64,000 nucleotides of DNA from an uncultured virus (IMG/VR IMGVR_UViG_2061766007_000148) (IMGVR_UViG_2061766007_000148), one strand, 5' to 3'. Positions 21,960 through 64,000 are shown, counted from the stretch's first letter. Notes: generated by a model not told the origin, from the letters alone. Numbers and translations: made by a program.

Positions 21960-22451
21960 TTACCTGTCTAACATGTATTTTGCGACCAGTGCGGCAATAC
22001 CTATGCCGAACATGACCGTCCAGACCATCACAGCCTCCTGTGGGATTAATACCCCCCAGATTGTGGAAGTTAGCAGTCCTAAGACTATGGGCATTGTGAT
22101 ATTGCCGGTTCTCTCGTATGAACGATATATAATTGCCGACCACATGATGACGAAGAACCACGCACCGAAAATTGTGGTAAACGGTGCGATGAGACTGTAT
22201 GCAAATCCGAATCCGTCAAATTCATGTGTGTCCGGGTGGAACCAGTACTGAGTGTAGGTGCCGTAATTGAAGTCCGGGATTGTGATGTTTTCAAGATTTA
22301 TCGCCGAAACACAGATTATTTGTAAGACTGCCATTATAATTACGGCAGTCAAAAGTAATCTGAGCTGAAGATGCGGGTTTGCATCGTCAAATCTCAGATG
22401 ACTCATGTATTTTTTGCAAATTTCGGTGAATGTGTCTTTTAGATTTTCCAT
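21960..22451 (-). CDS. multi-TM membrane protein
   Basis: four hydrophobic segments; AAGGGGGA RBS. Confidence 0.75.
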   Translation of the reverse strand: MENLKDTFTEICKKYMSHLRFDDANPHLQLRLLLTAVIIMAVLQIICVSAINLENITIPDFNYGTYTQYWFHPDTHEFDGFGFAYSLIAPFTTIFGAWFFVIMWSAIIYRSYERTGNITMPIVLGLLTSTIWGVLIPQEAVMVWTVMFGIGIAALVAKYMLDR

Positions 22452-22479
22452 TTTTCCCCCTTGGATATATTATCGATAA

Positions 22480-22902
22480 TCAGTCCTCAAAGATTACGCC
22501 ACGCACGATTTGCAGAACCGCCGCACCGTAGGCAAACCATACGGGCGCGGTGAGCAGTGCGGATAACCCGGTCGGAATTCCGAGCGACATAAGGAACCAC
22601 GGCAAATATGCCGTGCTGTTATACAGAGCTCTGCCGAACATCACCAATACATCCAGAATTGATGCCTCATCAAGCCCCACCATCTGGAAATCCGAATAAT
22701 TGACCGTTAAAGGCAATCCGTCATCGGTTGCGAGGTAGTAATTGTTTGTCGTGCTGTCATAGGTATAAGTCCAATTCCCGCTGAAATTAGATGAGAATTG
22801 CAGGTCGGGGTATCCCGACCCGAACAATGCCATCTCATTCATGAGCGCTACGGAAAGACTGAGAATAAACAGAAACATTGCAATTTTGTAACCCATTATC
22901 AT
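22480..22902 (-). CDS. membrane protein with signal/TM segment and N-glycosylation sequons
   Basis: N-terminal hydrophobic segment, NFS/NWT/NYS/NST sequons, C-terminal TMs. Confidence 0.75.
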   Translation of the reverse strand: MIMGYKIAMFLFILSLSVALMNEMALFGSGYPDLQFSSNFSGNWTYTYDSTTNNYYLATDDGLPLTVNYSDFQMVGLDEASILDVLVMFGRALYNSTAYLPWFLMSLGIPTGLSALLTAPVWFAYGAAVLQIVRGVIFED

Positions 22903-22903
22903 G

Positions 22904-25900
22904 TTATCCCCTCCTCTGTGTAAATCCGGCAACGATGGCTATAACTATCGCTATTATGAGCCAATGCCACGGTATTGTGAGCCATCCGAGATAGACAAAC
23001 AGTGTTGCCGAAAATGCCACAACCAAAGCCCCTCTAATTGCCGACATATAGCTGAACAGCCCCGCAAGTACAATCAGGAAACATGAGAATAATACATTCT
23101 TAATGTTCTGGTCAAGCGGAATCGGAATAATGTCTCTCGACGAAGACAGCACAAAAGAATTCCTTGATGTGCCGCTGACTCTGTTTGCGGAGAACTGCAC
23201 CTTATAAGATGTCGTGTCATCCACAATCGGGAGTTGTTCATCGATATTTTGCGTATCCGTGAAAGTCTGTTCGTACACGGTTTCCCATGTGTCCGTTCTT
23301 TGGACTTTGACGGTAACGGAGTTTGTCTGCCCCGAATTATCGTTGTATTTTAAATCAATTCCGTTGATTTCTTCATTCCATACCGCTTTGTAGGATATTG
23401 CCTCTGAAATAGGGCTTGTATGGATATTGACAGTTTGTGACTGAACACTTGGTGATGCCATAACGACCACAACTTTCTGACCGTTGCCGACATCAAACTT
23501 ATATGTCTGTCCCGCCGTCAGCTGCACGACATATTTCCCCGCGGAATCCGTCAAACCCTGTGCAAAAGAGTTCCACTGATTGCCAGAATACACCGAGACG
23601 TTAACCGCGGCATTCCTGTATGAATCGGAATCCTTGTATGCATACAGCGTAAACCAAAAATCAGTCTGAACAACCTCCGGGGTATTCGTCTGATACAACG
23701 TCAGTGAATTAGTGCGTCCGGCAAGAATATACTCGCCGCGTGCGGACATCCTAAGCGATGTGATGGGATTTTCCGAATCCGAACTGTATTCAAGATACCA
23801 ATTAGAACTTGCGTCTTTGCTGAAAATATAGACTTTGCCGTCCTCTCCGCCGCTTGCCGCCCAAAGTGCGTTTTTATCGGCTATGTCGACATGAATCACG
23901 GCACCGCCCGCCNNNNNNNNNNNACTCATGGAGTAGATATCGGTAATTTGTCCCTGTCCGAGTATTGACATTGCCGCGCTGTTAGCTGTCGCTATATCGT
24001 AGACTGTACCAGTACTATCTAATGCCGCAGAGTATTCCGTACCAAATCCGGCATTTGTAATCTGATCATGATACAAATTTGTTGTTGTTGCCGAACCTAA
24101 CCAATCTCCTCTGTCAGATAACGAAATCGCTTGTATATTGCCGGTCAGTGTTTTAGTACTCTGAAGACTGTATATACTCAATAATGGTTTTGTTTGCAGA
24201 CTATATGTGCCGCTGAAATCAACGGCATTATTGTATGTAGTTTGTGTGTGCTGTGGATTTGTGCCTGTGAAATTGTAGAAGACATACGTTGTACCACTGC
24301 TTGCAGGTTGTATTTTTAAATATGTATTCGTTGAACACCAGACATCAGTATAATATGTTGCTCCCGCACGACCCCCTGCGATCCACATTGTGCCATCATA
24401 TACCCATGAACTCGCGCCATATCGTGCATCCCATCCAGCCGCACTTGTTGCCCTTGTCCATGTAATTCCGTCCGAAGATGACCAGACATCATTATAATAT
24501 GTTGATCCCGCTTGACCGCTTGCAATCCACATTTTGCCGTTGAATACCCCCGAACTCGCTGTTCTTCTCACAGACCACCCAGCCGCACTTGTTACCTGTG
24601 TCCATGTAATTCCGTCCGAAGATGACCAGACATCATTATAATTTGTTGATGCTGAGTTTGTACCCCCACCCGCAATCCACATTTTGCCGTTGAATACCCA
24701 CGAACTCGCTCCTCTTCTCGCAGACCATCCCGCCGCATTTGTTGCCTGAGTCCATGTAATCCCGTCCGAAGAACTCCAGACATCATGACTAACAGATCCT
24801 CCATTACTGCCGCCTGCAATCCACATTTTGCCGTTGAACACCCATGAACTGGCTTCAAGTCGTGCATCCCATCCAGCCGCACTTGTTACCTGTGTCCATG
24901 TAATCCCGTCCGAAGATGACCAGACATCATTATAATTACTACCTCCCGTACGACCGCCTGCAATCCACATTTTGCCGTTGAACACCCATGAACTCGCACC
25001 AAATCGTGCACCCCATCCAGCCGCACTTGTTACCTGTGTCCATGTAATTCCGTCCGAAGAAGACCAGACATCATTATATACTGTGTTTCCCGTAAGACCG
25101 CCTGCAAGCCACATCTTGCCGTCAAAAACCCATGTCGATGCCCCCGTCCGACCGCTCCAACCCACAGATGCATTTATTTTAGACCACTCAATACCTATTG
25201 GATCGTAATAGTTATACGCCCCCGTTGTTGTCAGAGATGGATCCGAAACAGCAATCCCCGTTGTGATTTGTTCCCAAATATCCTCATCAAAATTATCTTT
25301 TGATATAATTATTGCATTTGTTTGTGACGGATCTGTGTATAATATCAGTAAATTTTGATAATTTACAAATGCTNNNNNNNNNNNNNNNNNNNATTTTTCC
25401 CCAATACTGATTTGTTGTTGACAGAATGTATTTTTGAAGATTTGAATTGCCGCTTTGCACAATTGCAAATTCATCATTAGGATCGATTACACCAAGACTG
25501 AATGTGCCGCTTGCTGAATCATACTCAACTGTTCCGTCTGAGAGATATTTGTGAAAAATTGTGCCCTCTACAATCAGCACGTTGCCGACATTTGAGATAT
25601 CAATATCAGTTATTGCCGAAAAGGATTGAGTCCATGTGATTGCGCCGTTATTGATGTAATAAACGGTATTGGAATCTGTATATAATGCCGCTTTACTTCC
25701 GTCATCCGTGCAGACTATCTGCTTGATATTGCCGGAGATACTGAATGTATTCTGTTGAACTCCCGCACTGTCATATACAAAAATTTGAGAGCCGACTGCG
25801 GCATAGATTACAGACCCGTCCTCGCTCATATCCGCCGCGGTTACGTCGCCGATGTCCTTTGTCCACGCTACCGATGTGTCCGCCGCGGCTGTGCCGATGA

Positions 25901-25967
25901 CGGCTGAAAGGATAATCAAAGATAATGCAAATATTGCAAAGATGTGTTTTATGTCGGATTTATTCAT
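22904..25967 (-). CDS. membrane-anchored beta-propeller adhesin/spike with a Kelch-like repeat insert (copy A)
   Basis: signal peptide (AAA-D), WD40/PQQ-like blades, Kelch-like repeats, Ig-like region and 3 C-terminal TMs; frame change coincides with N gap 25374-25392; homologous to 62410. Confidence 0.75.
24330..25190 (-). repeat. six tandem ~147-bp Kelch-like coding repeats
   Basis: WTQVTSAAGWxxRxxASSWVFNGKMWIAGGxxxxxYNDVWSSSDGIT units. Confidence 0.9.
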
Positions 25968-25968
25968 A

Positions 25969-26247
25969 TTATTGCCCCCTTGTGAGTTCTTTTATAAGAT
26001 TTTGATATTCCGCATACTCTGCCGCGATTTGTTCTTCATTTTCGTCAGGTAAAATAGACCAAACATATCCGCCAATAATCCCAATCGGCAAAATACTTGC
26101 AAAAGCACCACCCAATATTATCTTGAATAATGCCTCTGACTGAATTACTTGGAAATTATACATTAATGCCGCAAGAAAAATACACACGTATGCCGCATCG
26201 AAAATAGGGAATAGTTTATCAAATAATTGTTTTGTGAGTTTTATCAT
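25969..26247 (-). CDS. small 2-TM protein (variable array)
   Basis: KLTKQ start, 2 TMs, LPDE motif. Confidence 0.65.
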   Translation of the reverse strand: MIKLTKQLFDKLFPIFDAAYVCIFLAALMYNFQVIQSEALFKIILGGAFASILPIGIIGGYVWSILPDENEEQIAAEYAEYQNLIKELTRGQ

Positions 26248-26248
26248 G

Positions 26249-26431
26249 TTATCCCCGTACCCTCGGATTATTAAGATCTGCGCCATATCTGCCGGACTGC
26301 ACGCGGACAGAGCGTCGCCGACAGGGCATAATTATGCCGGGTATTTCATCCGTGAATATCATCCTTCGGAAATGCTCTTCATCATTAATGATGAATCTAT
26401 TCGTGTGCCTCGACTTTTGAAAGATTTTCAT
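26249..26431 (-). CDS. small protein, possibly a frameshifted homologue of 62235-62405
   Basis: MKIFQKSRHTNRFIINDEEH aligns with MKILSPKRYENMFYIDDEGH, but there is no in-frame TM. Confidence 0.35.
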   Translation of the reverse strand: MKIFQKSRHTNRFIINDEEHFRRMIFTDEIPGIIMPCRRRSVRVQSGRYGADLNNPRVRG

Positions 26432-26666
26432 TTATTCTGTCACCACTCAATAAATGAGACACAATAATTGTCAAAATACCCATCGTGAGGATTATAAACA
26501 TAGTACAAAACATAATTGTAGTAATCTCACTACTGCTTGGATCAATACAGATATTTATCACTAAACCTAATGATGACCCAAGCATCGCCGATAGGTAAAT
26601 CAGCATTGCAGTTTTCAGTTGCTCTTTAGTCTGTCCGTAATCAATCCATTTTTTAAGAATGCTCAT
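26397..26666 (-). CDS. small 2-TM protein; counterpart of 61221
   Basis: WIDYGQTKEQLKTAM vs WKEFGKTKEDMKTAL; GGAGGT RBS. Confidence 0.7.
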   Translation of the reverse strand: MSILKKWIDYGQTKEQLKTAMLIYLSAMLGSSLGLVINICIDPSSSEITTIMFCTMFIILTMGILTIIVSHLLSGDRINENLSKVEAHE

Positions 26667-26726
26667 AATAACCTCCTAAATATATTCCTACGCTGTTTCT
26701 AACTGTCCGAATCCGTGTAAAACCTA

Positions 26727-27005
26727 TTACAGATACACTTTGTCATTGCTTTTATCCTCGTCTCCCAGATAAAAGATATACCCTATAATATCAAAGATCA
26801 ATGCTATCGTAAGGAGTGCCCACATCGACAAATAAGCGATTATTATAAGCAACATCACCTCAATTTCATAAGGTGAGCAGAAGATATACGCAAGAAACAA
26901 ATATACCAAACCGAATACTGAAAATATCCCCAGATATTTTCCGTAGTTTCTAATACCTTCTTTTAATGTGCTTAAGTCTCTTTTTTTAAAATATATTTTG
27001 GTCAT
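26727..27005 (-). CDS. small 2-TM protein (variable array)
   Basis: 2 TMs; YLGDE tail. Confidence 0.7.
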   Translation of the reverse strand: MTKIYFKKRDLSTLKEGIRNYGKYLGIFSVFGLVYLFLAYIFCSPYEIEVMLLIIIAYLSMWALLTIALIFDIIGYIFYLGDEDKSNDKVYL

Positions 27006-27278
27006 TTATATCCCCTCTGAAGTTTTTATATCGTGTTTTGCAACCTCGATACCTGTAATATCTCTCTCATCCGGCAGACTCCCTCTGAGAACAATCACCC
27101 AGATAAACATAAACTCGTATGCAAGAAACATGCATGTAAGATTCAGGATATTATCATTTGTAGGAGCCTGTCTGAGTACTTCCAAAACAAGCACCATTAG
27201 TGTTGCCGTGACTGCGGGTTGTAAGTACATCATTAAGAAATCTAATCTTTGTTTGGTCATTTTCTTTATATTTATCAT
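27006..27278 (-). CDS. small 2-TM protein (variable array)
   Basis: KMTKQ start, 2 TMs, LPDER motif; ATGA overlap. Confidence 0.7.
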   Translation of the reverse strand: MINIKKMTKQRLDFLMMYLQPAVTATLMVLVLEVLRQAPTNDNILNLTCMFLAYEFMFIWVIVLRGSLPDERDITGIEVAKHDIKTSEGI

Positions 27279-27712
27279 TTTATTGCCTCTTTTGCAGATT
27301 GTAATAATTTTTCGTATTCTTTGCGGCATTCGACAGTTCTCTCATCGGGCAGATGAATCCAGATTATGACCTCAACGGCAATTAATGCAAGGACTGAACC
27401 CGTCCACAGGACTCCGAGGACGACAAGCGCCGACAGACTCTCTCTGAACACAATCAGAAGAATCACAAACATGATTATCATGTATATCGGAATCGTGCGA
27501 ATACAGACTATTGAGAAATACTCTCTCGTAATCGGTGATTTTGTGTACAGCCCTTTGATGAGCTCATCAAGAGGAATGTACTTTGCGGGATTCTCTTTAT
27601 GCGGTGTACTGCGGATATTGCCGTTAATTAAATCCTCACGGTAAAGGTCATCCGCGGATATTTCCGCGGATTTTGAGACCTGTATTCCCGACTCGGTATC
27701 GTAATCGGACAA
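27275..27712 (-). CDS. 2-TM protein (variable array)
   Basis: 2 TMs; LPDER motif; start uncertain. Confidence 0.65.
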   Translation of the reverse strand: MSDYDTESGIQVSKSAEISADDLYREDLINGNIRSTPHKENPAKYIPLDELIKGLYTKSPITREYFSIVCIRTIPIYMIIMFVILLIVFRESLSALVVLGVLWTGSVLALIAVEVIIWIHLPDERTVECRKEYEKLLQSAKEAIK

Positions 27713-27738
27713 TATCCGTGCCTTGAAGTCATTGAAGT

Positions 27739-27918
27739 TTATGTTATCATCCCCTGACTATACAGGCTGTAATGGACAAATCCTATGATTGCCGCCGCAT
27801 ACAGCACATAGAACACGGCATCACAAAACATCATGGTGTATGTGTAGTGTGTCAGATTGCCGTGGCGGTCTGCGAAGTAATACGGCGAATACGGGAGTCT
27901 GTCCCGCAGATTTTCCAT
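27739..27918 (-). CDS. small 1-TM protein
   Basis: TGATG coupling gives an MENLRD start; C-terminal TM. Confidence 0.55.
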   Translation of the reverse strand: MENLRDRLPYSPYYFADRHGNLTHYTYTMMFCDAVFYVLYAAAIIGFVHYSLYSQGMIT

Positions 27919-28169
27919 CAATAGCTTGACCCCCCTGAAATTGTGGCTGTATATATAAGCCATATGAAGCAGCAGAAAACGAAGGGCACCGGGAACCAAA
28001 TCCAACACAACAACAGGTTTTGTATCAGATAATCAGGCACCCCCGAATTTACCGCCATATCATAGAGCGTTATCGTAATCAAATCATACAGTGCGGTATA
28101 TACGAACATTACCGCCGCTATCGCAAAGATAACGGTAATTCCTGAGTATGCAACGTCTTTTAGTGTCAT
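27918..28169 (-). CDS. small 2-TM putative virion protein (paralogue of 60957)
   Basis: near-identical to 60957-61208. Confidence 0.8.
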   Translation of the reverse strand: MTLKDVAYSGITVIFAIAAVMFVYTALYDLITITLYDMAVNSGVPDYLIQNLLLCWIWFPVPFVFCCFIWLIYTATISGGSSY

Positions 28170-28438
28170 ATGCGGTCACCATCCTCATCATCGGCATTCC
28201 CTAAGTAAATCCATAACAGTGGTGCAAATATGCACAGGACAAACAGGAACATGATGGTTGACAAGCCCATTCCGAAGAGTTCATAGATCGCAGTGTGGTA
28301 TGTGAGCCATGCTCCCGAAAGGGATGACGGGTCTAAGGCGCCGTGAACCGAGTAGAAAACGATGGCGCCCACGTAAAGAGTAATCATCAATGCGATTACC
28401 GTTACTATTACACTGCTGACCGATCTTAATGCTCCCAT
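28166..28438 (-). CDS. small 2-TM putative virion protein (paralogue of 60688)
   Basis: hydrophobic hairpin; conserved in the second module. Confidence 0.8.
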   Translation of the reverse strand: MGALRSVSSVIVTVIALMITLYVGAIVFYSVHGALDPSSLSGAWLTYHTAIYELFGMGLSTIMFLFVLCIFAPLLWIYLGNADDEDGDRI

Positions 28439-28478
28439 TTAAACCATCCCCATTATGTATTCTCTGTGATTTGCCGTG

Positions 28479-29213
28479 TTATTTTAACAGCATTATACCC
28501 GCTCCGAGTAACAGACCCGCACCAAAACAGATGATGGGCAGATAGTTTGTCGTCGGACTCTGTGCTTTTTCGTCGTTGACCTTCTTCATTGCCTCCTGAT
28601 ATCCTGTTAAATCGGATGCCGTGAGGTTACGCGGGTAATATCTCTGAAGGTCGTATATCGGTACGTAAGAGAATGCTTTGATGCGGATTTCGGCATCCGC
28701 GGGGCATTTCTCGATTGCTGCATAGAGCGTGTCAAAGTTAGTAATCGGCGCTCTGTTTGCTTTTTTCGGCAGCCACGTGAAATCCGGTTCAAACATGAAT
28801 TCAGGTTCGTCATCCGAATTCCAAGCCTTGATGAAATCAAGTGTTGCAATATTGATCTTCGGGTCAAGGGTCAATCCCCAGTAATCGGCAAGCAGTTCTG
28901 CACTGCAATCTCCGAAGAGATGATGTTCGGTCTTTTTTGCCGTCCACGTCATTCCGAGAGCGCTGAATACGCCGCTGAAATACCTGAGACGTTTGAAAGA
29001 CACTCTGTGATTCTGGAAAATAATTCCTATGTCTTTGTCAGACCCGGAACCGAACATTGCCGTCCAGAAATATCCCTCGACCGGACCTAAACGACTGTAT
29101 CCCAAATACATGACAAATCCCATGACCATACATACAAGCAACAGGAAAATGATTACCCATGTGCTTGTACCGAGACCTAAAAAGCTCTGTTCATAAACTG
29201 TAATATATCCCAT
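28479..29213 (-). CDS. membrane protein with N- and C-terminal TMs (paralogue of 59916)
   Basis: same length (244 aa) and highly similar to 59916-60650. Confidence 0.85.
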   Translation of the reverse strand: MGYITVYEQSFLGLGTSTWVIIFLLLVCMVMGFVMYLGYSRLGPVEGYFWTAMFGSGSDKDIGIIFQNHRVSFKRLRYFSGVFSALGMTWTAKKTEHHLFGDCSAELLADYWGLTLDPKINIATLDFIKAWNSDDEPEFMFEPDFTWLPKKANRAPITNFDTLYAAIEKCPADAEIRIKAFSYVPIYDLQRYYPRNLTASDLTGYQEAMKKVNDEKAQSPTTNYLPIICFGAGLLLGAGIMLLK

Positions 29214-29284
29214 ATTTTCCCCTCTTTATGATTTATTTTGAGTTTGTGTGTTTTCGTATCATTTTGCCGACCCCGACAAAATGA

Positions 29285-29963
29285 TCAGTTACGTTTCAGG
29301 AAACTGAAAAATCCCCCTTCTTTTGATGTTTTCTTGACATCGGGTACTCTGTGCAGAGCGTCAACTAAACCCGGATTGAGTGTTCTGCCGAGGATTGTAG
29401 CGTCACGGAGTCCGTCGCCCTCGTAGGTAGTACTTCTTGCGATTAAGTTACGTGCCCAGTGATGGAGTTGGATGTAATCCGCGGGTGTCATTTCACGTGC
29501 TACACGGCTGTCGGCAAGCGCCGCGATGATTGATGCGTGCATTAAGTCCATCGCCTTTTTTTGCTGTTCGGCATTGGATGTATTCGTCATTGCTTGGTGA
29601 ATTCCGCCGTCGAACATTATCCAAAGCGCGTCCTGAATGCATTTCTTTGTCTGCGGCAAAGCGAAGGTTGTCTCTTTTTTGATGAGTGTTTCACTCAGCC
29701 CCTCGCTTCCGCCGTAGGGTGTCGGAGACATGTCATCTGACAGGTCTGACATGTCCGGCATATCATCCGGTATGTCCGCGTCATCGGGGAGTCCCCCGTC
29801 ATCGGGCATATCCGGTATGTCGGGCGCGGCATCGGCATAGTCTTCGGGCACCCCTTCGGGCATCCCTTCGGGTGCGCCNNNNNNNNNNNNNNNNNNNNNN
29901 NNNNNNNNNNNNNNNNNNNNNNNNNNNNTCTCCCGTTTCCTCATCGAGTAATAGATTTCTCAT
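29285..29963 (-). CDS. acidic PDM-repeat protein (paralogue of 59177)
   Basis: MRNLLLDEE start, N gap, PDM repeats, conserved C-terminal domain ending GFFSFLKRN. Confidence 0.8.
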
Positions 29964-55439: not shown

Positions 55440-56069
55440 ATGACCGAAAACACAGATGAATTCTACATCGCACCGGATCGCGATGCCAAGGACGCATTGA
55501 AACACTGGATGAATGACTCAACCGTAATGGTCTTGGATGAATATGCACAGTACAGCGGGTTCTATGTAAGCTCTCTGGAGTGCGGGGGATATCATATCGC
55601 ACAAAGAGCGGGGGTCACACCGAAAGAGGCTCTGGACGCGATTATAGAAGCGCGCAGACCCGACGGAATGCACATCAAGATATATTACATATCCAAAACA
55701 CAATACCAAAAAGAGCTTGAAGCACACAAAGCGCATCTGAAAGCAACACACGAATGGTCATATGTCATGATTTTCAGGTATAATCAGGATGTCTGCGGAT
55801 GGGGTGAGACGTTCGGCGATGCTTTGCGGATGGCAAGAGCCAATCACCCCGAAATCGAATACCCCGACAACCCCGATTCATACACGGATTACAGAATTGC
55901 AAATGACGGCGATATCACATACTCCGATGACGTTCAATACTATATGTATAAGAAGTTTGAATCCGGCAAAAATTACAGATTCAGAAGAACCACGGAATAT
56001 GATATTCGGGCAAATGCTCTTCAGTCAGCGGGAATACCCGTTCCGTTGGTAGGCATAATGATTGAATGA
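55440..56069 (+). CDS. tandem F3 (HicB-N-like) domain protein
   Basis: RAGVTPKEALDA and VCGWGETFGDALRMA motifs. Confidence 0.6.
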   Translation: MTENTDEFYIAPDRDAKDALKHWMNDSTVMVLDEYAQYSGFYVSSLECGGYHIAQRAGVTPKEALDAIIEARRPDGMHIKIYYISKTQYQKELEAHKAHLKATHEWSYVMIFRYNQDVCGWGETFGDALRMARANHPEIEYPDNPDSYTDYRIANDGDITYSDDVQYYMYKKFESGKNYRFRRTTEYDIRANALQSAGIPVPLVGIMIE

Positions 56070-56694
56070 CCAAAACATTCTGGGAAACAAATTAAATGAA
56101 CGGATACGGAACAGGAGCTATCAATCCATGAAACCGGAATCAATTCTCATATATCTTCTTCTTAAAAAGTTGGGAATCAGCTTTAACTACGAAACCAAAG
56201 CTGACAGGATGTATTATCAAAATATGGAGTATATGTTGCAGAGGTGCGGGGTATTCTTGGGATATCACTATTCATGGTATATCAGCCCGTATTCGAGGGA
56301 TTTGGCACATACACTCTATGACTTGGATTACAGCCTGAAACAGTATGAAAAGGACTATACGTGGTATAAACTCGATGATGAAGTGGAGGAGTTAACCAAC
56401 GGTCTTGAAAAATATCGGGCAATATCCGAAATTCCCGACGGAGTTCAGATTACCGACACGTCCAAACCTCAAAATGCCGTTTGGCTTGAGTTTGTCGCAT
56501 CCGTCGATTATCTGCACAACAGCCCGTCACGCCCGACTGCAATAAAAGAAGAAGATATCAGAGCATTCACCCAAAAAGAGAAAGGTACCATGTTCGGCAA
56601 TTTTGAACAAAGCTATGAAATTGCATTGAATGTCATCAACGGCGCCAATCTCACGGATGCCGACATTATGAATTATGGCAAATATGATTACTGA
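56062..56694 (+). CDS. Panacea/SocA(YwgA)-like antitoxin-fold protein; paralogue of 21221
   Basis: RMYYQNMEYMLQRCG...YSWYISPYSRDL and WLEFVASVDYL motifs. Confidence 0.65.
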   Translation: MNDQNILGNKLNERIRNRSYQSMKPESILIYLLLKKLGISFNYETKADRMYYQNMEYMLQRCGVFLGYHYSWYISPYSRDLAHTLYDLDYSLKQYEKDYTWYKLDDEVEELTNGLEKYRAISEIPDGVQITDTSKPQNAVWLEFVASVDYLHNSPSRPTAIKEEDIRAFTQKEKGTMFGNFEQSYEIALNVINGANLTDADIMNYGKYDY

Positions 56695-56721
56695 GAACAT
56701 TACAAACTGCGGAGACAGAGT

Positions 56722-56967
56722 ATGACAGACAGAAACCTCTATTATAGGGTTGCAAAACATTATGACAAAAAAACAAAGGAGATAGTTGTCGGAGAACCCA
56801 TACCATTTGGGACATATCTGCGATTATCGGATATTCCCGAAGGGTTTCAGGTAAATGTAAAGCAATATATCGTAATGGTATTCTATTTCATGGACAAAAG
56901 AAGCGCGATATCATTCTATAATACCACTCCGAGAGAACTGCCCGATTGGGAATGGGAAAGACTCTGA
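56722..56967 (+). CDS. small hypothetical protein
   Basis: YYRV.K.Y....VGEP resembles the 52452 N-terminus. Confidence 0.65.
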   Translation: MTDRNLYYRVAKHYDKKTKEIVVGEPIPFGTYLRLSDIPEGFQVNVKQYIVMVFYFMDKRSAISFYNTTPRELPDWEWERL

Positions 56968-56987
56968 AAAATCAAATGTAAACAGGA

Positions 56988-57010
56988 ATTGTATGATTAT
57001 ATCATACAAT
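56988..57010. terminator. inverted repeat between convergent units
   Basis: ATTGTATGAT-TAT-ATCATACAAT, perfect 10-bp arms. Confidence 0.5.
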
Positions 57011-57048
57011 CTCCTTAAAAAACGAGATAATTTTTTCAGCCGTACAAT

Positions 57049-57444
57049 TTATCTTTTGTAAGAATATTTCCTGTTAAACTTGGAGCTGTCCTCGAACGGG
57101 AAATTCTTATACTTCTGATAAACCGCGTTCGGCAACATCTTTCTGACAGATGCCGGGGTAACCGGATTGAAAAAGATGCTGTAATCTCCTGTGTTGTTAA
57201 TCTTAAAACGATTGATAAACTGATTGACGGATAACTTTGCCGTGAGATCTTCCCCGCTTTTACTAATTAACCTTAAAGGCTCTCCGTTTTCGACACAGAA
57301 GATTACTTTCCCTTTATGTGTTATCAGATAAAAGTTCAAAAGACCTTTATTTGCAACAATGATACTCGCATGGGCAATTCCCCAATCATATCCCAAAGAC
57401 CTGTTATCGGTCAAAAGATTATTTGTACTGTATTGATTACTCAT
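57049..57444 (-). CDS. family F1 protein; homologue of 31793
   Basis: LGYDWGI, ITHKGKVI and LTAKLSVNQF motifs. Confidence 0.8.
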   Translation of the reverse strand: MSNQYSTNNLLTDNRSLGYDWGIAHASIIVANKGLLNFYLITHKGKVIFCVENGEPLRLISKSGEDLTAKLSVNQFINRFKINNTGDYSIFFNPVTPASVRKMLPNAVYQKYKNFPFEDSSKFNRKYSYKR

Positions 57445-57462
57445 GATTATACTCCTTAAAAT

Positions 57463-57882
57463 TTAAAATAACCTTTCCTTTACATATTTAAAACACTCAT
57501 TAGTTTTCTGACTGACAGTATTGGGAACTATCTTATTAACATATGATGATGGTGCATCTAACAGTCCTGCTTTCATTTTCCCTGAAAGCCCAACACTGTA
57601 CAATCGATTCAATAATTCGAGAGGAGTGTATTTACCTGTCAAATTATCTCCTTTTTGAGAAACAAACATATAGTAATGCTTACCATCAGGGGTGGCAAAA
57701 ATTGCCTTTCCATTATGAATTATCATAAAAAAGATAGTGTCACTTTTATGTTCAAAAGATATCACAACTGGCGCAATTTCCCAACCCCATCCCACAGATA
57801 GTTTCTCAAGAATTCTTTTCTTTACAACCCCCATAGGATTACGATCTATGTGGAATTTATTAATCAACGTATTTCCCTCCAC
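57463..57882 (-). CDS. family F1 protein
   Basis: IIHNGKAI and LTGKYTPLEL motifs; start uncertain. Confidence 0.75.
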   Translation of the reverse strand: MEGNTLINKFHIDRNPMGVVKKRILEKLSVGWGWEIAPVVISFEHKSDTIFFMIIHNGKAIFATPDGKHYYMFVSQKGDNLTGKYTPLELLNRLYSVGLSGKMKAGLLDAPSSYVNKIVPNTVSQKTNECFKYVKERLF

Positions 57883-57897
57883 AATATGTTTTCTTCA

Positions 57898-57923
57898 ACC
57901 CAATATATGAAAATACATTACAA
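57898..57923 (-). promoter_or_regulatory. conserved virus promoter
   Basis: TTGTAATGTATTTTCATATATTGGGT on the minus strand. Confidence 0.8.
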
Positions 57924-57992
57924 TTTTCAAAATGCCGCGAAGACCGTTGATGAATCTCAAAATCCATGGTGATACGGAGGTCAAACCAAAAT

Positions 57993-58018
57993 TTGTAATG
58001 TATTTTTATATATTCCAT
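57993..58018 (+). promoter_or_regulatory. conserved virus promoter (capsid operon B)
   Basis: TTGTAATGTATTTTTATATATTCCAT. Confidence 0.85.
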
Positions 58019-58051
58019 CAAACAAATGACAGTATAGGAGGGAAATAAGTT

Positions 58052-58441
58052 ATGAGTCTTAAAGAAAAGCTCAGCCTTGCGGGCGGTCTTATCGCACGCA
58101 GAGCACAGGCATACAGAATGGGGGAGAGCGCTTTCTCAGGTCTTCGTGAGGAGACAAGAGAGACGCTTGGACTCAATGAGAATGGTTTTACGGATTGGAT
58201 TACCGGAATGGTTACATCGTTCATTGCACTGGCAATCGTCATCGCAATCGGTGTTATTATTCTCGCAAGCGTTCAGCAGGCAATGCCTGCCGTTAACGAG
58301 TCAAGTCCGTACTATGCACTCCAGAACTCACTTGAGACCACAACCGCATCCGGATACGGCTTAATCGCGATTGTAATCATCATTGTTGCAGCTGCGGCAA
58401 TCATGGCGGCAATCACGCTGATTCAGCGCAGACAGCAGTAG
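58052..58441 (+). CDS. putative major capsid protein (spindle-virus/pilin-like hairpin), copy B
   Basis: about 78% identical to 30695-31087 by manual count; NENG-F, two hydrophobic helices. Confidence 0.6.
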   Translation: MSLKEKLSLAGGLIARRAQAYRMGESAFSGLREETRETLGLNENGFTDWITGMVTSFIALAIVIAIGVIILASVQQAMPAVNESSPYYALQNSLETTTASGYGLIAIVIIIVAAAAIMAAITLIQRRQQ

Positions 58442-58455
58442 GTCAGAGGTACATC

Positions 58456-58635
58456 ATGACCTCTAACTTACTTTTTCAGAGCAATCTTATTTTAACGGAA
58501 ATATCTCCGTATTCAGGTTTACAGGATACAATCGAAAACACGGTAACATCGGGTTTCGGATTGTTCGGAATTCTTATTCTCGTATTGATAATTGCTGTAA
58601 TACTTGCGGTATTCAGTAAATTTAAGGCGGGGTGA
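58456..58635 (+). CDS. 59-aa capsid-protein paralogue (putative minor capsid protein)
   Basis: MTSNLLFQSNLILTEISPYSGLQDTIENTVTSGFGLFGILILVLIIAVILAVFSKFKAG aligns to the MCP C-half; GAGGT RBS; not in the track. Confidence 0.65.
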   Translation: MTSNLLFQSNLILTEISPYSGLQDTIENTVTSGFGLFGILILVLIIAVILAVFSKFKAG

Positions 58636-58639
58636 GAAG

Positions 58640-59146
58640 ATGTATTCCAAATTCGCAACACGGATAACAATTGCTTTTCTCATCGTGTTGACGGTATTTA
58701 TGATATCCCCCGCATCCGGGGAAGATGTCGGCAAGAGTATTCCGTGGGATGTGAAATTCAGTCAGCAACCCGTATTCAACTTGGGAAATGACTCGGTTCA
58801 CGTCTCAATGCTGTCATGGTGGGGAATTTTCGTAACCGCATTTGTGTTTTTCCTTGCATCGCTCAAGTGGACACTCAAAAACGGTTCGGATATAATTGCG
58901 ACAATAAGCACGGTAATGTTCGGATTTCTGTCAGTTACGGCATTCAACGTCCAATCTTGGTCATATGAAGTTGTCACCGTTCAGCTCAACGAGTCCGCAC
59001 AGGTCTACTTGATGCCTGTTGTGTACACTCAACCGCCATGGTTAATCTGGATAACCGTAATGATGCTCATCATCGGTGTAGTCAATGTGTACAGAATACA
59101 CATACAGAACTTGGCATCATCGGCATACTCAACCGCGGTGCGGTAA
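58640..59146 (+). CDS. signal peptide plus 3-TM membrane protein
   Basis: paralogue of 30027-30533. Confidence 0.8.
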   Translation: MYSKFATRITIAFLIVLTVFMISPASGEDVGKSIPWDVKFSQQPVFNLGNDSVHVSMLSWWGIFVTAFVFFLASLKWTLKNGSDIIATISTVMFGFLSVTAFNVQSWSYEVVTVQLNESAQVYLMPVVYTQPPWLIWITVMMLIIGVVNVYRIHIQNLASSAYSTAVR

Positions 59147-59176
59147 AACACCGAAATAAGATAAAGGGGGAATATA

Positions 59177-59860
59177 ATGAGAAATTTATTACTTGATGAA
59201 GAATCGGGGAACATCTTCATGGAAGACGGCACATGCCTCGGTTCAATAAATGATTTGTTAAACCGCGGGGGAACACCCGACGACGATTACGGCGAACAGC
59301 CCGATATGGGGGGATATGCAGACGATGCCGCACCCGACATGCCTGACATGCCCGAAGATGCCGATGACGGAGATATGCCGGACATGTCGGATATGCCCGA
59401 TATGTCGGATGACATGTCCCCGACACCTTACGGCGGAAGTGAGGGGCTGAGTGAAACGCTCATCAAGAAAGAAACGACTTTCACACTGCCGGCATCCAAG
59501 AAGTATATTCAGGACGCACTTTGGATAATGTTTGAAGGGGGAATTCACCAGACCATGACGAACACATCCAACGTCGAACAGCAGAAAAAAGCCATGGACT
59601 TGATGCACGCATCCATTATCGCGTCACTTGCGGACAGCAGGGTAGCGCGCGAAATGTCACCCACAGATTACATCCAATTGCATCATTGGGCGCGCAACCT
59701 CATAGCGAGGAGCACAACCTATGAAGGCGACGGATTAAGAGATGCAACCATCCTCGGCAGAACACTCAACCCCGGTGTCGTAGATGCCTTAAGGAGTGTC
59801 CCCGAAGAGAAAAAATCAAGTAAGTCCGGAGGATTTTTCAGTTTCCTGAAGAGGAATTAA
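59177..59860 (+). CDS. acidic PDM-repeat protein
   Basis: paralogue of 29285-29963. Confidence 0.8.
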   Translation: MRNLLLDEESGNIFMEDGTCLGSINDLLNRGGTPDDDYGEQPDMGGYADDAAPDMPDMPEDADDGDMPDMSDMPDMSDDMSPTPYGGSEGLSETLIKKETTFTLPASKKYIQDALWIMFEGGIHQTMTNTSNVEQQKKAMDLMHASIIASLADSRVAREMSPTDYIQLHHWARNLIARSTTYEGDGLRDATILGRTLNPGVVDALRSVPEEKKSSKSGGFFSFLKRN

Positions 59861-59915
59861 CCGACGGCGGACTGAATAAAAAACAAACAACACAAAATAA
59901 CAAAGGAGTCAAAAT

Positions 59916-60650
59916 ATGGCATATATCACAGTTTATGAGCAGAGCATTTTGGGAATCGGATTAAGCACGTGGGCAATAATCTTTCTGATTCTCGTAATCA
60001 TGGTCATGGGATTTGCAATGTATCTCGGATACAGCAAGTTAGGTCCGGTCGAAGGATATTTCTGGACGGCGCTATTCGGTGCGGGTGATGATAAAGATAT
60101 TGGAATTATATTCCAGAATCACCGTGTATCTTTCAAAAGGCTGAGATATTTCAGCGGAGTGTTCAGCGCACTCGGAATGACGTGGACGGCAAAAAAGACC
60201 GAACACCACTTATTCGGAGAATGTAACGCAGAACTCCTTGTAGATTACTGGGGATTGACACTTGACCCGAAAATCAACATCGCAACACTCGATTTCATAA
60301 ATGCATGGAATTCCGACGACGAACCTGAATTCATGTTTGAACCTGATTTCACGTGGTTACCGAAGAAAGCAGACCGTGCGCCGATTACAAACTTTGACAC
60401 ACTGTATGCGGCAATCGAAAAATGCCCGTCGGATGCCGAAATCCGCATGAGAGCATTCTCATATGTTCCCGTGTATGACTTGCAGAGATACTATCCGCGC
60501 AACCTCACGGCATCCGACCTGACGGGATATCAGGAAGCAATGAAAAAAGTCACCGATGAGAAAGCTCAGAGTCCGTCGACAAATTATCTGCCGATAATCT
60601 GCTTTATTGCGGGTGTTCTCCTCGGCGTGGGAATTATGTTCCTGAAATAA
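59916..60650 (+). CDS. membrane protein with terminal TMs
   Basis: paralogue of 28479-29213. Confidence 0.85.
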   Translation: MAYITVYEQSILGIGLSTWAIIFLILVIMVMGFAMYLGYSKLGPVEGYFWTALFGAGDDKDIGIIFQNHRVSFKRLRYFSGVFSALGMTWTAKKTEHHLFGECNAELLVDYWGLTLDPKINIATLDFINAWNSDDEPEFMFEPDFTWLPKKADRAPITNFDTLYAAIEKCPSDAEIRMRAFSYVPVYDLQRYYPRNLTASDLTGYQEAMKKVTDEKAQSPSTNYLPIICFIAGVLLGVGIMFLK

Positions 60651-60687
60651 AATTCACAAATACATCGTAAAACAGGAGGAATAAACA

Positions 60688-60960
60688 ATGGGAAGCGAAT
60701 TCAGATCGGTCAGCGGAGTTATAGCAACCGTAATCGGATTAACCGTAGTTATCTACGTAGGAGGAATTGTATTTTATTCGGTCTACGGCACGTTAGACTC
60801 AACATCCCTTTCTGACGTGTGGTTGACTTATTACACGGCAATCTATGATTTCTTCGGAATAGGGCTGTCCACGATGCTTTTCATCTTCATCCTGTGCATC
60901 ATCGCGCCCATACTTTGGATTTTCCTCGGTAATTCCGATGATGGGGAGGATAGAATATGA
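60688..60960 (+). CDS. small 2-TM putative virion protein
   Basis: paralogue of 28166-28438. Confidence 0.8.
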   Translation: MGSEFRSVSGVIATVIGLTVVIYVGGIVFYSVYGTLDSTSLSDVWLTYYTAIYDFFGIGLSTMLFIFILCIIAPILWIFLGNSDDGEDRI

Positions 60961-61208
60961 CATTAAGAGACGTAGCATACTCAGGAATTACCGTCGTTTT
61001 TGCGATAGCGGCGGTAATGTTCGTTTATACAGCACTTTATGATCTGGTCACGATTACACTCTATGATCTGGCTGTGAATTCGGGGGTGCCTGATTACATC
61101 ATACAGAACCTACTGCTGTGTTGGCAGTGGTTCCCGGTGCCGTTCATTATATGCTGTTTCATTTGGATGATTTACACCGCCACAATATCAGGCGGTGCAA
61201 GTTATTGA
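60957..61208 (+). CDS. small 2-TM putative virion protein
   Basis: paralogue of 27918-28169. Confidence 0.8.
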   Translation: MTLRDVAYSGITVVFAIAAVMFVYTALYDLVTITLYDLAVNSGVPDYIIQNLLLCWQWFPVPFIICCFIWMIYTATISGGASY

Positions 61209-61220
61209 AGAGGGAATATC

Positions 61221-61484
61221 ATGGGATTAATAGAGGATTGGAAGGAATTCGGTAAAACCAAAGAGGATATGAAAACCGCACTGTCAGCATATCTTGAAGG
61301 ATTGATTGGAATAACCTTTGCTTTAGGGGTTATTTCCGTCTGCAACCCTTCGGATATTTATTTAGGGATATATCTGTTTGTGCTTGAAATCCTCGGAATT
61401 TCGGGAGGATTCATGATGGTTATCGTGAAATATCTGAACGGGAAAGAACCGATGAACAACAAATACACTACAAAAACGGCATGA
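61221..61484 (+). CDS. small 2-TM protein (variable array)
   Basis: counterpart of 26397-26666. Confidence 0.7.
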   Translation: MGLIEDWKEFGKTKEDMKTALSAYLEGLIGITFALGVISVCNPSDIYLGIYLFVLEILGISGGFMMVIVKYLNGKEPMNNKYTTKTA

Positions 61485-61786
61485 TTAAATTAAGATTGAA
61501 GGGGATTACAATGAGATTACTGAATAGACCTTATAAATTGATAGATAAAGCGGATATGTTGAAATTTTTAAAAGACTGTCTCAAAATTTTGGAGATTGGC
61601 ATGGGATTTTATACAGCCGTTCATTTATTGGAATACTGTCTCGTAAATTCATTTGATTTTATGAGTTGGATTGTCGGAATGGCATTAATGTATTCAGCGT
61701 TCGTAACATCTCTGTTGGCAATGGTGATATACTATCTGTGTCAGGACGAGTTAGTCAAACCGGAAACCGCAACCGTGACGGTATAA
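61481..61786 (+). CDS. small 2-TM protein (variable array)
   Basis: 2 TMs; YLCQDE tail. Confidence 0.7.
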   Translation: MIKLRLKGITMRLLNRPYKLIDKADMLKFLKDCLKILEIGMGFYTAVHLLEYCLVNSFDFMSWIVGMALMYSAFVTSLLAMVIYYLCQDELVKPETATVTV

Positions 61787-61806
61787 TACTCAAAAGGGGG
61801 GCAATA

Positions 61807-62079
61807 ATGAAACTAAAACAGAATGTTACCAAAAAAGAACTTGTGTCGGTATTCAAAATATATATTTTGGGATGGTTGTGCTATTACATAGCGGCAATAC
61901 TCACACTTACGTTAAATTTCCATTTCAATTTCATAATCGACATCGAAAACTGGTGCCAAAACCTGTGTGTTTTGACCATGTATGGATTCATGATTACAAC
62001 AATACTGGTTATGAGTAATTTCCTATGTTATTTATGTCAGGAGAACACGACAAATGAGCGAATATGCGGGGCAGAATAA
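61807..62079 (+). CDS. small 2-TM protein (variable array)
   Basis: AAGGGGG RBS before MKLKQNVTKKEL; YLCQEN tail. Confidence 0.7.
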   Translation: MKLKQNVTKKELVSVFKIYILGWLCYYIAAILTLTLNFHFNFIIDIENWCQNLCVLTMYGFMITTILVMSNFLCYLCQENTTNERICGAE

Positions 62080-62263
62080 AATAGCAGAACTTGTATTCTG
62101 TATTATTTTATGGGTACTTCCGGCAATTGTAATGATACAGACGGTAACCGATCTCGGAATGTGCGTCTTTGCATTCACCTGTATAACAGGGATATGTTTT
62201 ACGGCAATGCAGATTATCTTGGGGGAAAAATCAAATGAAAATACTCAGCCCGAAACGATATGA
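62054..62263 (+). CDS. small 2-TM protein (variable array)
   Basis: 2 TMs. Confidence 0.6.
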   Translation: MSEYAGQNKIAELVFCIILWVLPAIVMIQTVTDLGMCVFAFTCITGICFTAMQIILGEKSNENTQPETI

Positions 62264-62405
62264 AAACATGTTTTACATAGATGACGAGGGACATCTTCAC
62301 GAGATGACCTTTGCGGATATACTCATCGACACAGTGTGTCAGGTCGGCGGCACATTCTGCGGTGCCGCACTGGTAGGAATGATATATGCCCTGATAGTTT
62401 GGTGA
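62235..62405 (+). CDS. 56-aa 1-TM protein
   Basis: GGGGGA RBS; MKILSPKRYENMFYIDDEGHLHEM...LVGMIYALIVW; not in the track. Confidence 0.55.
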   Translation: MKILSPKRYENMFYIDDEGHLHEMTFADILIDTVCQVGGTFCGAALVGMIYALIVW

Positions 62406-62409
62406 TATT

Positions 62410-64000
62410 ATGTATAAAAAAAAAGAATCAACAAAAATAACAACAACAGACAATAACTCTCTTTTTCACATCGCATTAGTCTGTATTTTGATTTTTGGCA
62501 TCGTCGGTATTGTTTCCGCGGACACATCGGTCGCATGGACAAAGGAGATCGGCGATGTCTTAGCAGCTGATATGGCTGAGGATGGGAGCATAATTTATGC
62601 GGCAATTGCTGACGGTGCGGACTCTACGCTGTATGTGTATGATTCACAGGGCACACAGCAAAACACATTCAGCATATCGGGAGCCGTTCAGGAAATTGTC
62701 TGCACAGCTGACGGGAGCAAAACGGCGCTTTATACTGATGGAAACGAGGTCTATTATATTGACGATGGGCAAATAACATGGACTGAACAGTTTACGGATA
62801 TCACGGATATTGATATCTCGGATGTCGGCAACGTGCTGATTGTAGAATCCGGCATATTTCATAAATATCTCTCAAATGGTAATCTTGATTACAATTCAAC
62901 TGCGGGCACATTTGATCTCGGAGTTATCGATCCTAATGATGATTATGCAATTGTTCAGTCAGGCACATCTAAACTTGACAAATATGTAATCACGACAACA
63001 GATGATTATTGGGCAGTTAATAATTATAATTCGTTTAATACAAATTTTGCGGATTTCCAAAACCTTTTGATTCTATATACCAATCCGGATCAGACTGAGG
63101 CAATTATACTATCAAATACAACTCTGGGAGATGAACTTTGGGAACAGGTTTATGACTATATTGCCGTTTCAGATTCATCATTGAATACAACAGGGGCATA
63201 TAATTATTTGGATACTTTAGGAGCAGTATGGACAGAACAAACAGCCTCGGCGGGATGGTCTGCAAGACAATCAGCATGTAGTTGGGTTATCGGAGATAAA
63301 TTATTTATTGGCGGCGGATCTACAGGCAGTACTTTAAATGATGTTTGGGTGTCTGAGGATTACGGTCAAACNNNNNNNNNNGAGAACAGGCAGTACTTTA
63401 AATGATGTTTGGGTGTCTGAGGATTACGGTCAAACATGGACTCAACAGACTGCCTCGGCGGGATGGTCTGCAAGACATTCAGCATGTAGTTGGGTTGTCG
63501 GAGATAAATTATTTATTGGCGGGGGNNNNNNNNNNCGGCATGTAGTTGGGTTGTCGGAGACAAATTATTTATTGGCGGCGGATCTACAGACAGTAATTTA
63601 AATGACGTTTGGGTGTCTGAGGATTTAGGTATTACATGGACTCAACAGACTGCCTCGGCGGGATGGGCGGCGCGATATGTGGCNNNNNNNNNNAAGAACA
63701 GGCAGTAATTATTTTAGGGATGTTTGGGTGTCTGAGGATTTAGGTATTACATGGACTCAACAAACAGCCTCGGCGAGATGGTCTGCAAGGCAATTAGCAT
63801 GTAGTTGGGTTGTCGGAGATAAATTATTTATTGGCGGGGGATTTTCAGGCGGTAATTTAAGAGATATTTGGGTGTCTGAGGATTTTGGTCAAACATGGAC
63901 TCAACAGACTGCCTCGGCGGGATGGGCGGCGCGATATGTGGCATGTAGTTGGGTTGTCGGAGACAAATTATTTATTGGCGGCGGATCTACAGGCAGTAAT
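62410..64000 (+). CDS. beta-propeller adhesin/spike with Kelch-like repeats (copy B), runs off the window
   Basis: signal peptide VSA-D; DTSVAWTK..GDV.AADM.EDGS colinear with the 25967 gene; frame breaks only at N gaps. Confidence 0.75.
63229..64000 (+). repeat. tandem ~144-bp Kelch-like coding repeats
   Basis: WTQQTASAGWxARxxACSWVVGDKLFIGGGxxGSxLNDVWVSEDxGxT units, nearly identical at DNA level, with three N gaps. Confidence 0.9.

Follow-up and report, generated by a model that had tools for sequence, protein, structure and literature searches.

Two mirrored, putatively structural modules in an uncultured viral scaffold probably derive from two related genomes joined during assembly

The IMG/VR record IMGVR_UViG_2061766007_000148, attributed to an uncultured virus, contains two inverted copies of a gene module that looks structural. 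The stretch analysed here, which we call the window, has 64,000 bases, a G+C content of 40.8% and 21 runs of N, and is dense in small open reading frames (ORFs). An initial annotation had described the two copies as diverged virion-morphogenesis operons of the same gene order, each running from a gene for a major capsid protein (MCP)-like protein to an adhesin, and had offered two explanations, namely one virus that could build two particle types or two related viruses joined by scaffolding. The inversion and the gene order are confirmed by self-comparison with blastn and by protein pairs. Module A (27918-31148, minus strand) and module B (57993-61208, plus strand) are inverted homologues with a DNA identity of 72-77%, and self-blastn gives three inverted matches with E-values between 1e-50 and 0, which pair 27918-29834 with 61208-59323 (77.3% over 1929 columns, E 0), 30066-31148 with 59104-57993 (71.8%, E 1e-169) and 25400-25883 with 63013-62518 (68.8%). 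The second match runs through the divergent promoter spacer in front of the module, as the initial annotation had said, and both spacers share a 23-nt motif. A metagenome scan with an alignment of one module protein, of 244 amino acids (aa), finds nine loci (here numbered with L); L001, on a B-like contig of 75,318 bp, is 94-97% identical to window 48675-63084 and is taken as the continuation of B past the window's end.

The MCP-like gene comes first in each module, at 30695-31087 (minus, 130 aa) in A and at 58052-58441 (plus) in B, and the two proteins are 78.3% identical over 129 aa, close to the 78% that had been counted by hand. The N-terminal third of the protein is hydrophilic, and behind it lie two hydrophobic helices, located at about 45-81 and 94-128 by a hydrophobicity scan and at 47-77 and 88-128 in an AlphaFold2 model of the B copy (predicted local distance difference test score, pLDDT, 73.6). 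A shorter paralogue, the mini-MCP, had been reported in both modules. The B copy (58456-58635, plus) is whole and matches the C-terminal part of the product of 58052-58441 with 38% identity over 47 aa, a relationship found likewise in L006 and L007, but the A copy (30538-30681, minus, 47 aa) retains its start MTSNL and a PYSxLQ motif while its hydrophobic helix is gone, and it looks decayed. The next genes encode a protein with a signal and three transmembrane (TM) segments (30027-30533, minus, 168 aa, four hydrophobic segments; 58604-59146, plus; 69.9% identity), an acidic PDM-rich protein (29285-29944, minus; 59177-59860, plus; 84.1%) and the 244-aa protein with its N- and C-terminal hydrophobic segments (28479-29213, minus; 59916-60650, plus; 88.9%), which is the best conserved gene of the family, with 78 invariant columns in the family alignment. 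Two-TM proteins of 90 and 83 aa follow, at 27918-28438 (minus) in A and at 60688-60960 and 60957-61208 (plus) in B, with 64.8% and 88.0% identity. The genes of the module B core (58052-61208, plus) are 97.8-100% identical to L001 proteins. The 50-N gap inside the PDM-rich gene of A (29879-29928) is closed by 8 letters in a contig of one public run (X5), so that its size is overestimated.

Behind the core lies a variable array of small TM proteins, delimited by hydrophobicity scan, which comprises five two-TM proteins in A (25969-27712, minus) and occupies 61221-62405 (plus) in B; the sole pair between the two arrays is one member (26397-26666 in A) with 28.6% identity. The first ORF of the B array (61221-61484, plus, an 87-aa two-TM protein) has a cluster member on the 75-kb contig that is labelled 'disulfide bond formation protein DsbB' at source. 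The adhesin-like gene closes the series, at 22904-25967 (minus, about 1020 aa, split by a 19-N gap at 25374-25392) in A and at 62410-64000 (plus) in B, where it runs off the window; the full-length B-type gene lies at 12495-15614 in L001 (1039 aa), and the N-termini of the A and B proteins are 53.8% identical over 106 aa. The A protein has a signal segment, a Kelch-repeat beta-propeller and C-terminal TM anchors (TM 756-801 of its C-terminal part), and its ORF at 22904-25372 matches Pfam PF24681 (E 4e-24, 85.6 bits, cutoff 50) and PF01344 (56.1 bits, cutoff 20.1). The adhesin is a single ORF of 1009-1062 aa in L001, L004, L005, L007 and L009. The Kelch repeats of A (24333-25134) are also tandem DNA repeats with a 144-nt period and 76-83% identity; those of B (63228-64000) are broken by three 10-N gaps, so that the repeat number of the B spike is unreliable.

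The homology had been described as ending at the adhesin on the outer side, and in this respect the description falls short, as it continues to window 17830 on the A side and also along the inner sides. L001 13716-20729 aligns to window 24784-17830 with 69-75% nucleotide identity and is thus colinear with the A arm beyond the window's end. This outer part of A (17830-22932, minus) carries genes for 150-aa, 163-aa, 175-aa and 633-aa proteins and the start of a 1015-aa gene, all homologous to the L001 sequence after module B: the adhesins of A and L001 are 64% identical over 828 aa, the 150-aa proteins 83% and the 175-aa proteins 52%, and the 163-aa and 633-aa genes agree by 72-75% in DNA. Inward of the modules lie the divergent promoter spacers (31125-31252 in A and 57900-58016 in B) and genes of a type termed F1, of which those at 31793 and 57049 had been called homologous and are (32.8% identity, E 7e-19). 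The A flank (31277-37032, plus) holds F1 genes at 31277-32197, a paralogous cassette block, and 109-aa and 126-aa genes, as judged from protein pairs. The B flank (44005-57882) consists of an inner gene at 44016-44419, minus-strand genes at 44144-45543, a plus-strand block at 45786-56967 and F1 genes at 57049-57882 (minus); it is 94-97% identical to L001 from 48675 onwards, and it encodes proteins found exactly on a 25,104-bp contig of another assembly. Amino acid identity links 36289-36618 with 44818-45147 (32%) and 36652-37032 with 44440-44796 (34%), and the two arms differ in the plus-strand block 45786-56967 of B and the cassette block 32329-36237 of A.

The mirror therefore far exceeds the module, with the A arm extending leftward from about 37.7 kb and the B arm rightward from 43.15 kb, and its centre is an N-free segment of 5.7 kb (segment X, 37737-43435, plus, 12 small genes). 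From the sequence comparison, a protein identity ranging from 28% to 89% over tens of kilobases would be the pattern of two related species and not of a duplicated operon. The obvious alternative is a single molecule with both modules, that is, a large archaeal virus in which about 30 kb would have been duplicated in inverted orientation long ago, and which could build particles with two sets of capsid and spike proteins, or mosaic particles. We regard this as very unlikely. Both modules are intact except for the mini-MCP, and contigs of 71 and 75 kb in the lineage indicate that genomes may be large enough, which is in its favour; the divergence across the whole arms, which resembles that of two species of one genus, is against it, and the centre of the mirror provides further evidence on the same question.

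At this centre, an alignment of the A flank with the inverted B flank shows orthology as far as 37456 in A and 44016 in B, and the last A-specific stretch (37077-37467) consists of a part with 82% nucleotide identity to the B flank (37077-37456 against 44419-44016) plus a 14-nt spacer. The N-free A piece that contains it (36181-37517) continues for 14 nt past 37456 and then for 50 nt (37468-37517) that equal the reverse complement of 43435-43386 (100%). After 87 N comes a 122-nt piece (37605-37726) with 98% identity to the reverse complement of 43273-43153. The interval 37468-37726 is thus an inverted A copy of X's right end, in two pieces, with 98-100% nucleotide identity to 43435-43153. Since these A pieces match inverted 43153-43435, the A genome enters X via its right end, with the same 14-nt spacing as B. 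Beyond the adjoining 10-N join (37727-37736), the similarity to X's right end stops and the scaffold jumps to X's left end; aligned with X's right end, the two sides of the join are unrelated, and this join, the sole link between A and B, is most likely false. On the other side of X, the scaffold places 10 N, a 78-nt piece and 481 N (43436-44004). Contigs run from X's right end over 14 nt directly into the B flank, which shows the 481-N gap to be spurious. With 93.6% identity to 42864-42938 in direct orientation, the 78-nt piece (43446-43523) is a further stray allele set in a gap.

The near-identical inverted repeats that flank X in the window (37468-37726 and 43153-43435) could also suggest a real invertible segment that flips between them, a reading to which we give almost no credence. 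The left 'repeat' is made up of two short pieces of the scaffold beside N gaps, and it extends the A flank just as X's right end extends the B flank, which identifies it as the orthologue in another genome. A flip would, moreover, leave the diverged arms and the difference in sequencing depth described below unexplained.

Public sequencing runs provide a further view of these junctions. Parts of 36201-46200 occur in 20 listed runs from 11 studies, and the 18 of them with an organism label are all metagenomes from gut or manure. One sample contributes four runs (X1-X4), which contain 0.85-0.95 of the sampled words of this interval (X1, 0.95); this sample is probably the source of the record and X1 the source run. 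The interval takes in sections of both flanks together with parts of X, which is compatible with one molecule. Logan contigs of X1, X5, X6 and X8 were placed on 25393-43435; their depth is one mean per contig, not a copy number, and is used only as a threefold contrast within one run. The initial annotation had proposed coverage of the two modules as a check on whether they share a molecule, and in X1 the equal depth expected of one molecule is not found: the six A-arm contigs have mean depths of 10.3, 11.5, 10.7, 9.3, 6.5 and 8.4, the X contigs 30.1 and 32.4, and the contigs across X's right-end junction, B flank included, 27.1-29.8, which sets 6.5-11.5 for the A arm against 27.1-32.6 for X and its two junctions. 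This roughly threefold difference argues against a single molecule. It had likewise been proposed to span the N gaps between 31 and 58 kb by long reads or PCR, and the contigs again do not support one molecule, as the joint of 37726 with 37737 is absent from the 15 joints listed (of 42 in the four runs). The gaps in 37737-61484 are bridged by the 25,104-bp contig.

The junction of X's right end with the B flank is seen in listed joints of X1 and X6 (37453 to 43435) and also in record 23 of X8, and the junction contigs are of B type, with the B letters G at 37229 and C at 37250. The 37453-to-43435 joint, reported as 'opposite strands', was considered as the A flank meeting X and rejected, because contigs with B letters mark it as the B-type junction, which maps to the A flank by similarity. 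The left end of X continues into F1-cassette sequence, which resembles 34836-35183 in X1 (30 letters, contig depth 32.6) and is 87-89% identical to the A flank in X6 (record 17); in X8, record 23 joins a piece like 35227-35661 straight to 38229, inside X. In X5, an A-like arm with 96-98.5% identity has a depth of 10.5-12.6 and X-like contigs one of 7.5-9.1, and one contig of this run (depth 10.3) links 32313 to 41022 with 3 letters between, the joint type and strand relation not being displayed; this joint sets an X-like gene beside an A-like F1 gene. The near-absence of module A cover in X6 and X8 (depth 0-0.5 in the bins of 25393-31412, against 14-36 for X) was considered and discounted, as absence from contigs is no evidence.

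Other assemblies speak to the same point. For each of 12 exact window proteins encoded between 37801 and 61484, the longest contig has 25,104 bp; the protein of 54102-54854 is on record solely on a contig of this length, and exact proteins from X genes at 37801, 38232, 40049 and 40545 are also on it. Window 37737-63371, less its N runs and the stray piece, amounts to about 25.1 kb, and because this span uses up its length, the 25,104-bp contig very probably runs from X's left end into the Kelch repeats. It would thus stop at the 10-N join, which is another point against one molecule, and it spans the gaps at 43436-44004, 53135-53188 and 53845-54037. For three A-flank proteins, one of them (36652-37032) encoded at a distance of 700 bp from the join, exact matches are confined to contigs of at most 3.4 kb. 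The annotation had suspected gap 53845-54037 as the place of a scaffolding error, and this part of its proposal fails: the gap is sound because its flanks are colinear in L001 and exact proteins from both sides lie on the 25,104-bp contig. The explanation itself, two related viruses joined by scaffolding, is favoured, with the false join at 37727-37736.

Relatives carry one module each. The 75-kb contig of L001 reaches about 34 kb in window-equivalent terms upstream of the B 244-aa gene, 2.6 kb past the place that the A copy would have if this contig were colinear with the window, and has one 244-aa locus; none of the nine family contigs has two, a finding that also disfavours the single molecule. 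Members with at least 90% identity exist on this contig for the B-flank genes at 44440, 45172 and 46194, and none for the four X clusters or three A-flank clusters examined. L003-L009 show one module each, within 4.2-20.7 kb of DNA, and the gene order is preserved on the related contigs, with a Kelch adhesin of about 1000-1060 aa and the membrane proteins of 150 and 163 aa at its end. Two proteins of a metagenome-assembled genome (MAG), IKS74_02225 (MCP-like) and IKS74_06845 (244-aa), are separated by about 900 genes and were considered as two modules in one bin; both belong to the same lineage (C, see below), and it is simpler to suppose that one module was split between two contigs.

Homology and its extent, junction geometry, contig depths and the single module of the relatives together lead us to conclude, with good confidence, that the window is a chimeric scaffold in which two related genomes are joined by a U-turn within a collapsed shared stretch. 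Genome A would comprise window 1 to about 37726 with its module on the minus strand, and genome B 37737 to 64000 with its module on the plus strand; each would have the order X, inner gene, small minus-strand genes, variable block, F1 genes, divergent promoter and structural module. The 98-100% identity of A and B near X's right end would have led the assembler to collapse them there, and the scaffold path would then run along the A arm into the shared stretch, make a U-turn over the 10-N join and proceed out along B, with the result that two orthologous modules would stand back to back. A single module per real genome is most likely, and the doubling is most likely an artefact. One virus with two operons and two particle types, as the annotation had proposed, is accordingly disfavoured by a join without a contig, the depth gap, the entry of both arms into X by the same end and the one-module 75-kb relative. 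Several traits of the window are those of chimeric metagenome scaffolds that arise where related strains or species occur together and share a collapsed, nearly identical segment, such as two orthologous, diverged halves that meet at a shared, nearly identical stretch, short variant pieces between N gaps (37468-37517, 37605-37726 and 43446-43523), gap sizes contradicted by contigs and unequal depth of the halves; the window differs from them in that the U-turn gives a palindrome-like layout that resembles a biological inverted duplication.

A number of observations weigh against this conclusion. The depths are Logan contig means, and an additional B-only strain could raise the depth of B beside a molecule with two modules; furthermore, the B-side depth refers to X and its junctions, and module B, within 44005-64000, lies outside the mapped span. 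In X1 and X6, X is preceded by an F1-type cassette in the orientation of the A flank, as one molecule would have it, and a second module could still lie further to the left in these runs; X8 has a different cassette junction (record 23), inside X. The X5 joint of 32313 with 41022, if on the same strand, would put an A-like flank by an X-like gene in the orientation of the window, which would likewise suit one molecule. The single module of the 75-kb contig rests on a pattern scan and a margin of about 2.6 kb, and the one shared 25,104-bp contig for 12 proteins is deduced from equal length. Homology of the first protein to known capsid proteins is, in addition, unsupported (hhalign 0.4-5.9%; Pfam 0/10 at E up to 10; PDB none), as described below.

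The distinction matters for how the record is used. Taken at face value, it would enter the literature as a virus possessing two sets of capsid and spike proteins, a striking claim, and if the join were real, it would represent a rumen Methanomicrobium virus of more than 64 kb whose two diverged modules could give two particle or host-range types. As a chimera, the record is unfit as a single genome for size, gene counts and taxonomy, and its remaining value is that a conserved, structural-looking module marks an unnamed family.

Each module would form one transcription unit behind a strong archaeal-type TATA promoter. Its products would be a small two-helix hydrophobic protein, the putative major virion protein, with a short paralogue, a run of membrane proteins and a membrane-anchored Kelch beta-propeller of about 1000 aa, the putative receptor-binding spike. 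On this architecture we lean towards a module that works like the structural block of spindle-shaped or pleomorphic viruses, and do not file it in those families. The terms 'virion morphogenesis' and 'MCP' of the initial annotation are still deductions from architecture; homology to known capsid proteins was tested and is unsupported. The Pfam families VP1_VP3 (PF06281) and His1_capsid (PF25665) match none of 10 MCP family members at E up to 10; hhalign of the MCP-like alignment against spindle-virus capsid proteins gives probabilities of 0.4%, 0.5%, 1.4% and 5.9%, none significant; a PDB sequence search has 0 matches; and a Foldseek search of the AlphaFold2 model against the PDB yields none at E ≤0.001. 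NINJ1, the top Foldseek row for this model (E 1.3), was taken as chance, and the model of the 244-aa protein (pLDDT 51) was too poor for a search. At a score of 0.84, which is no more than a lead, the ESM Atlas places the MCP-like protein nearest to the named clusters VP1_VP3 and His1_capsid; 4 of 10 family members match phrog_16261, 'virion structural protein', with a best E of 6e-4. Like spindle-virus MCPs, the protein has two hydrophobic helices with a short loop and an adjacent shorter, VP3-like paralogue; significant sequence or profile similarity to them was not found.

Comparison with known archaeal viruses shows where the likeness lies. With ORF21-28 of His1, the module shares the order of membrane topologies, as read from the TM annotations of the His1 record and the hydrophobicity layout of the module: in His1, ORF21 has two TM segments, ORF23 N- and C-terminal ones and ORF24 and ORF25 three each, ORF26 and ORF27 have a signal and a C-terminal anchor, and ORF28 has two TM segments, and the counterparts here are the two-helix protein, the 244-aa protein, the small multi-TM proteins, the anchored adhesin and the 150-aa and 163-aa TM proteins. 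ORF21 is presumably the capsid protein VP21. There is, however, no detectable sequence or profile similarity to His1 (hhalign 0.4% to ORF21), no protein-primed polymerase was found here, the contigs have 25-75 kb against a 14.5-kb genome, and the spike has Kelch repeats. VP1 of SSV1 resembles the MCP-like protein in its hydrophilic N-terminal part and two hydrophobic helices (144 aa against 129-130 aa here), a shorter paralogue immediately follows the first gene in the VP1-VP3 pair of the Fuselloviridae as it does here, and the SSVK1 record has VP1 as probably processed. The differences from the Fuselloviridae are a profile probability of 1.4%, and of 5.9% over 27 columns, with PF06281 unmatched, the lack of an integrase or DnaA-like gene among those found here, and a mesophilic ruminant gut in place of hot springs. 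The methanogen spindle-virus contigs C1359 and C1697 have 94.9-98.8% profile probability to SSV1 or His1 capsid proteins (PMC9796341). They are likewise uncultivated, come from anaerobic methanogen-rich samples and were assigned to archaeal viruses via a small hydrophobic capsid-like protein (PMC9796341), whereas the family described here attains at most 5.9% profile probability.

The viral nature of the elements can itself be questioned, since the join could be false and the elements plasmid-like or vesicle-forming archaeal extrachromosomal elements, whose module would encode surface or vesicle proteins and an adhesin. We consider this unlikely. Among 43 module and flank ORFs, only Kelch exceeds the Pfam cutoffs, and among 82 other ORFs only DUF1828 (13773-14213) does; a weak ribbon-helix-helix match lies at 11120-11431. 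No cellular hallmark was seen among these 43 and 82 ORFs, and Pfam and PHROGs recognise in them no replication, packaging or integration gene. That no capsid, portal, terminase or polymerase family is matched in the same ORFs would suit a non-viral element, as would the failure of the MCP assignment in every homology test and the size of the 71-75 kb contigs, which far exceed the genomes of His1 (14.5 kb) and SSV1 (15.5 kb). Against it, the succession of a small two-helix protein with a paralogue, membrane proteins and an anchored spike matches ORF21-28 of His1 and the fusellovirus VP1-VP3 pairing, the weak language-model and PHROGs leads both indicate virion proteins, and conjugation or partition genes were likewise not seen in the ORFs scanned.

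Among 5.8 billion clusters, 10 relatives of the 244-aa protein and 30 of the small MCP-like protein were found, all metagenomic and without a functional name; the 244-aa and MCP alignments find no relatives in 185,579 species genomes, none was found in the viral_contigs collection or, by tblastn, in phage records, and the literature searched holds no description of the module family. Three close lineages, A, B and C, can be distinguished, of which C is 91% identical to A and includes NCBI proteins labelled 'MAG: ... [Methanomicrobium sp.]', the sole host lead. The family most likely consists of viruses of methanogenic archaea in the ruminant gut, with Methanomicrobium as the host lead. Lineages A, B and C co-circulate, and their spikes and small membrane proteins vary far more than the core. 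That the module defines an undescribed family of archaeal elements, with contigs of up to 75 kb and a capsid-like protein beyond current profiles, is more likely than that the join is real.

The spacers upstream of both MCP-like genes align and have in common the TATA-containing 23-nt motif TGTAATGTATTTTTATATATTCC, which occurs at 9 window sites at up to 3 mismatches and at 0 in 100 shuffles. The sites start at 12740, 31125, 31230, 39116, 45586, 45660, 52387, 57900 and 57994. Spacer A has two copies, at 31125-31147 (minus) and 31230-31252 (plus), and spacer B also has two, at 57994-58016 (0 mismatches) and 57900-57922 (3 mismatches). The motif, which contains a TATA box of archaeal type, lies at the start of transcription units, among them those on both sides of three divergent junctions, and a related form lies upstream of the MCP-like gene in L004 and L007. 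Paralogues within the cassettes of 32329-39046 include 33128 and 34542 (59%), 33691 and 37801 (46%), and 34096 and 38232 (87%). In three runs, contigs are broken or rearranged at 39108-39110, 39405-39437 and 41381-42322, which suggests strain-level shuffling at repeated intergenic motifs.

No tRNA genes occur in the window. The large ORFs at 15049-18096 (minus, 1015 aa) and 19284-21185 (minus, 633 aa) contain N runs and have no Pfam or PHROG match; either could have a part in replication or in structure, and L009 encodes, past the module, a homologue of the 633-aa protein with 41% identity. The 175-aa protein (21221-21748, minus) and a 210-aa protein (56062-56694, plus) are paralogues with 35% identity, the former encoded downstream of module A and the latter upstream of module B; L001 has both, and L006 and L007 each have one upstream. 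A DNA methyltransferase is encoded at 4799-5458 (minus; phrog_757, E 1e-62; no Pfam match at E 0.01), and its homologues with 59% identity lie upstream of the module in L005 and L009, which fits circular or permuted genomes there.

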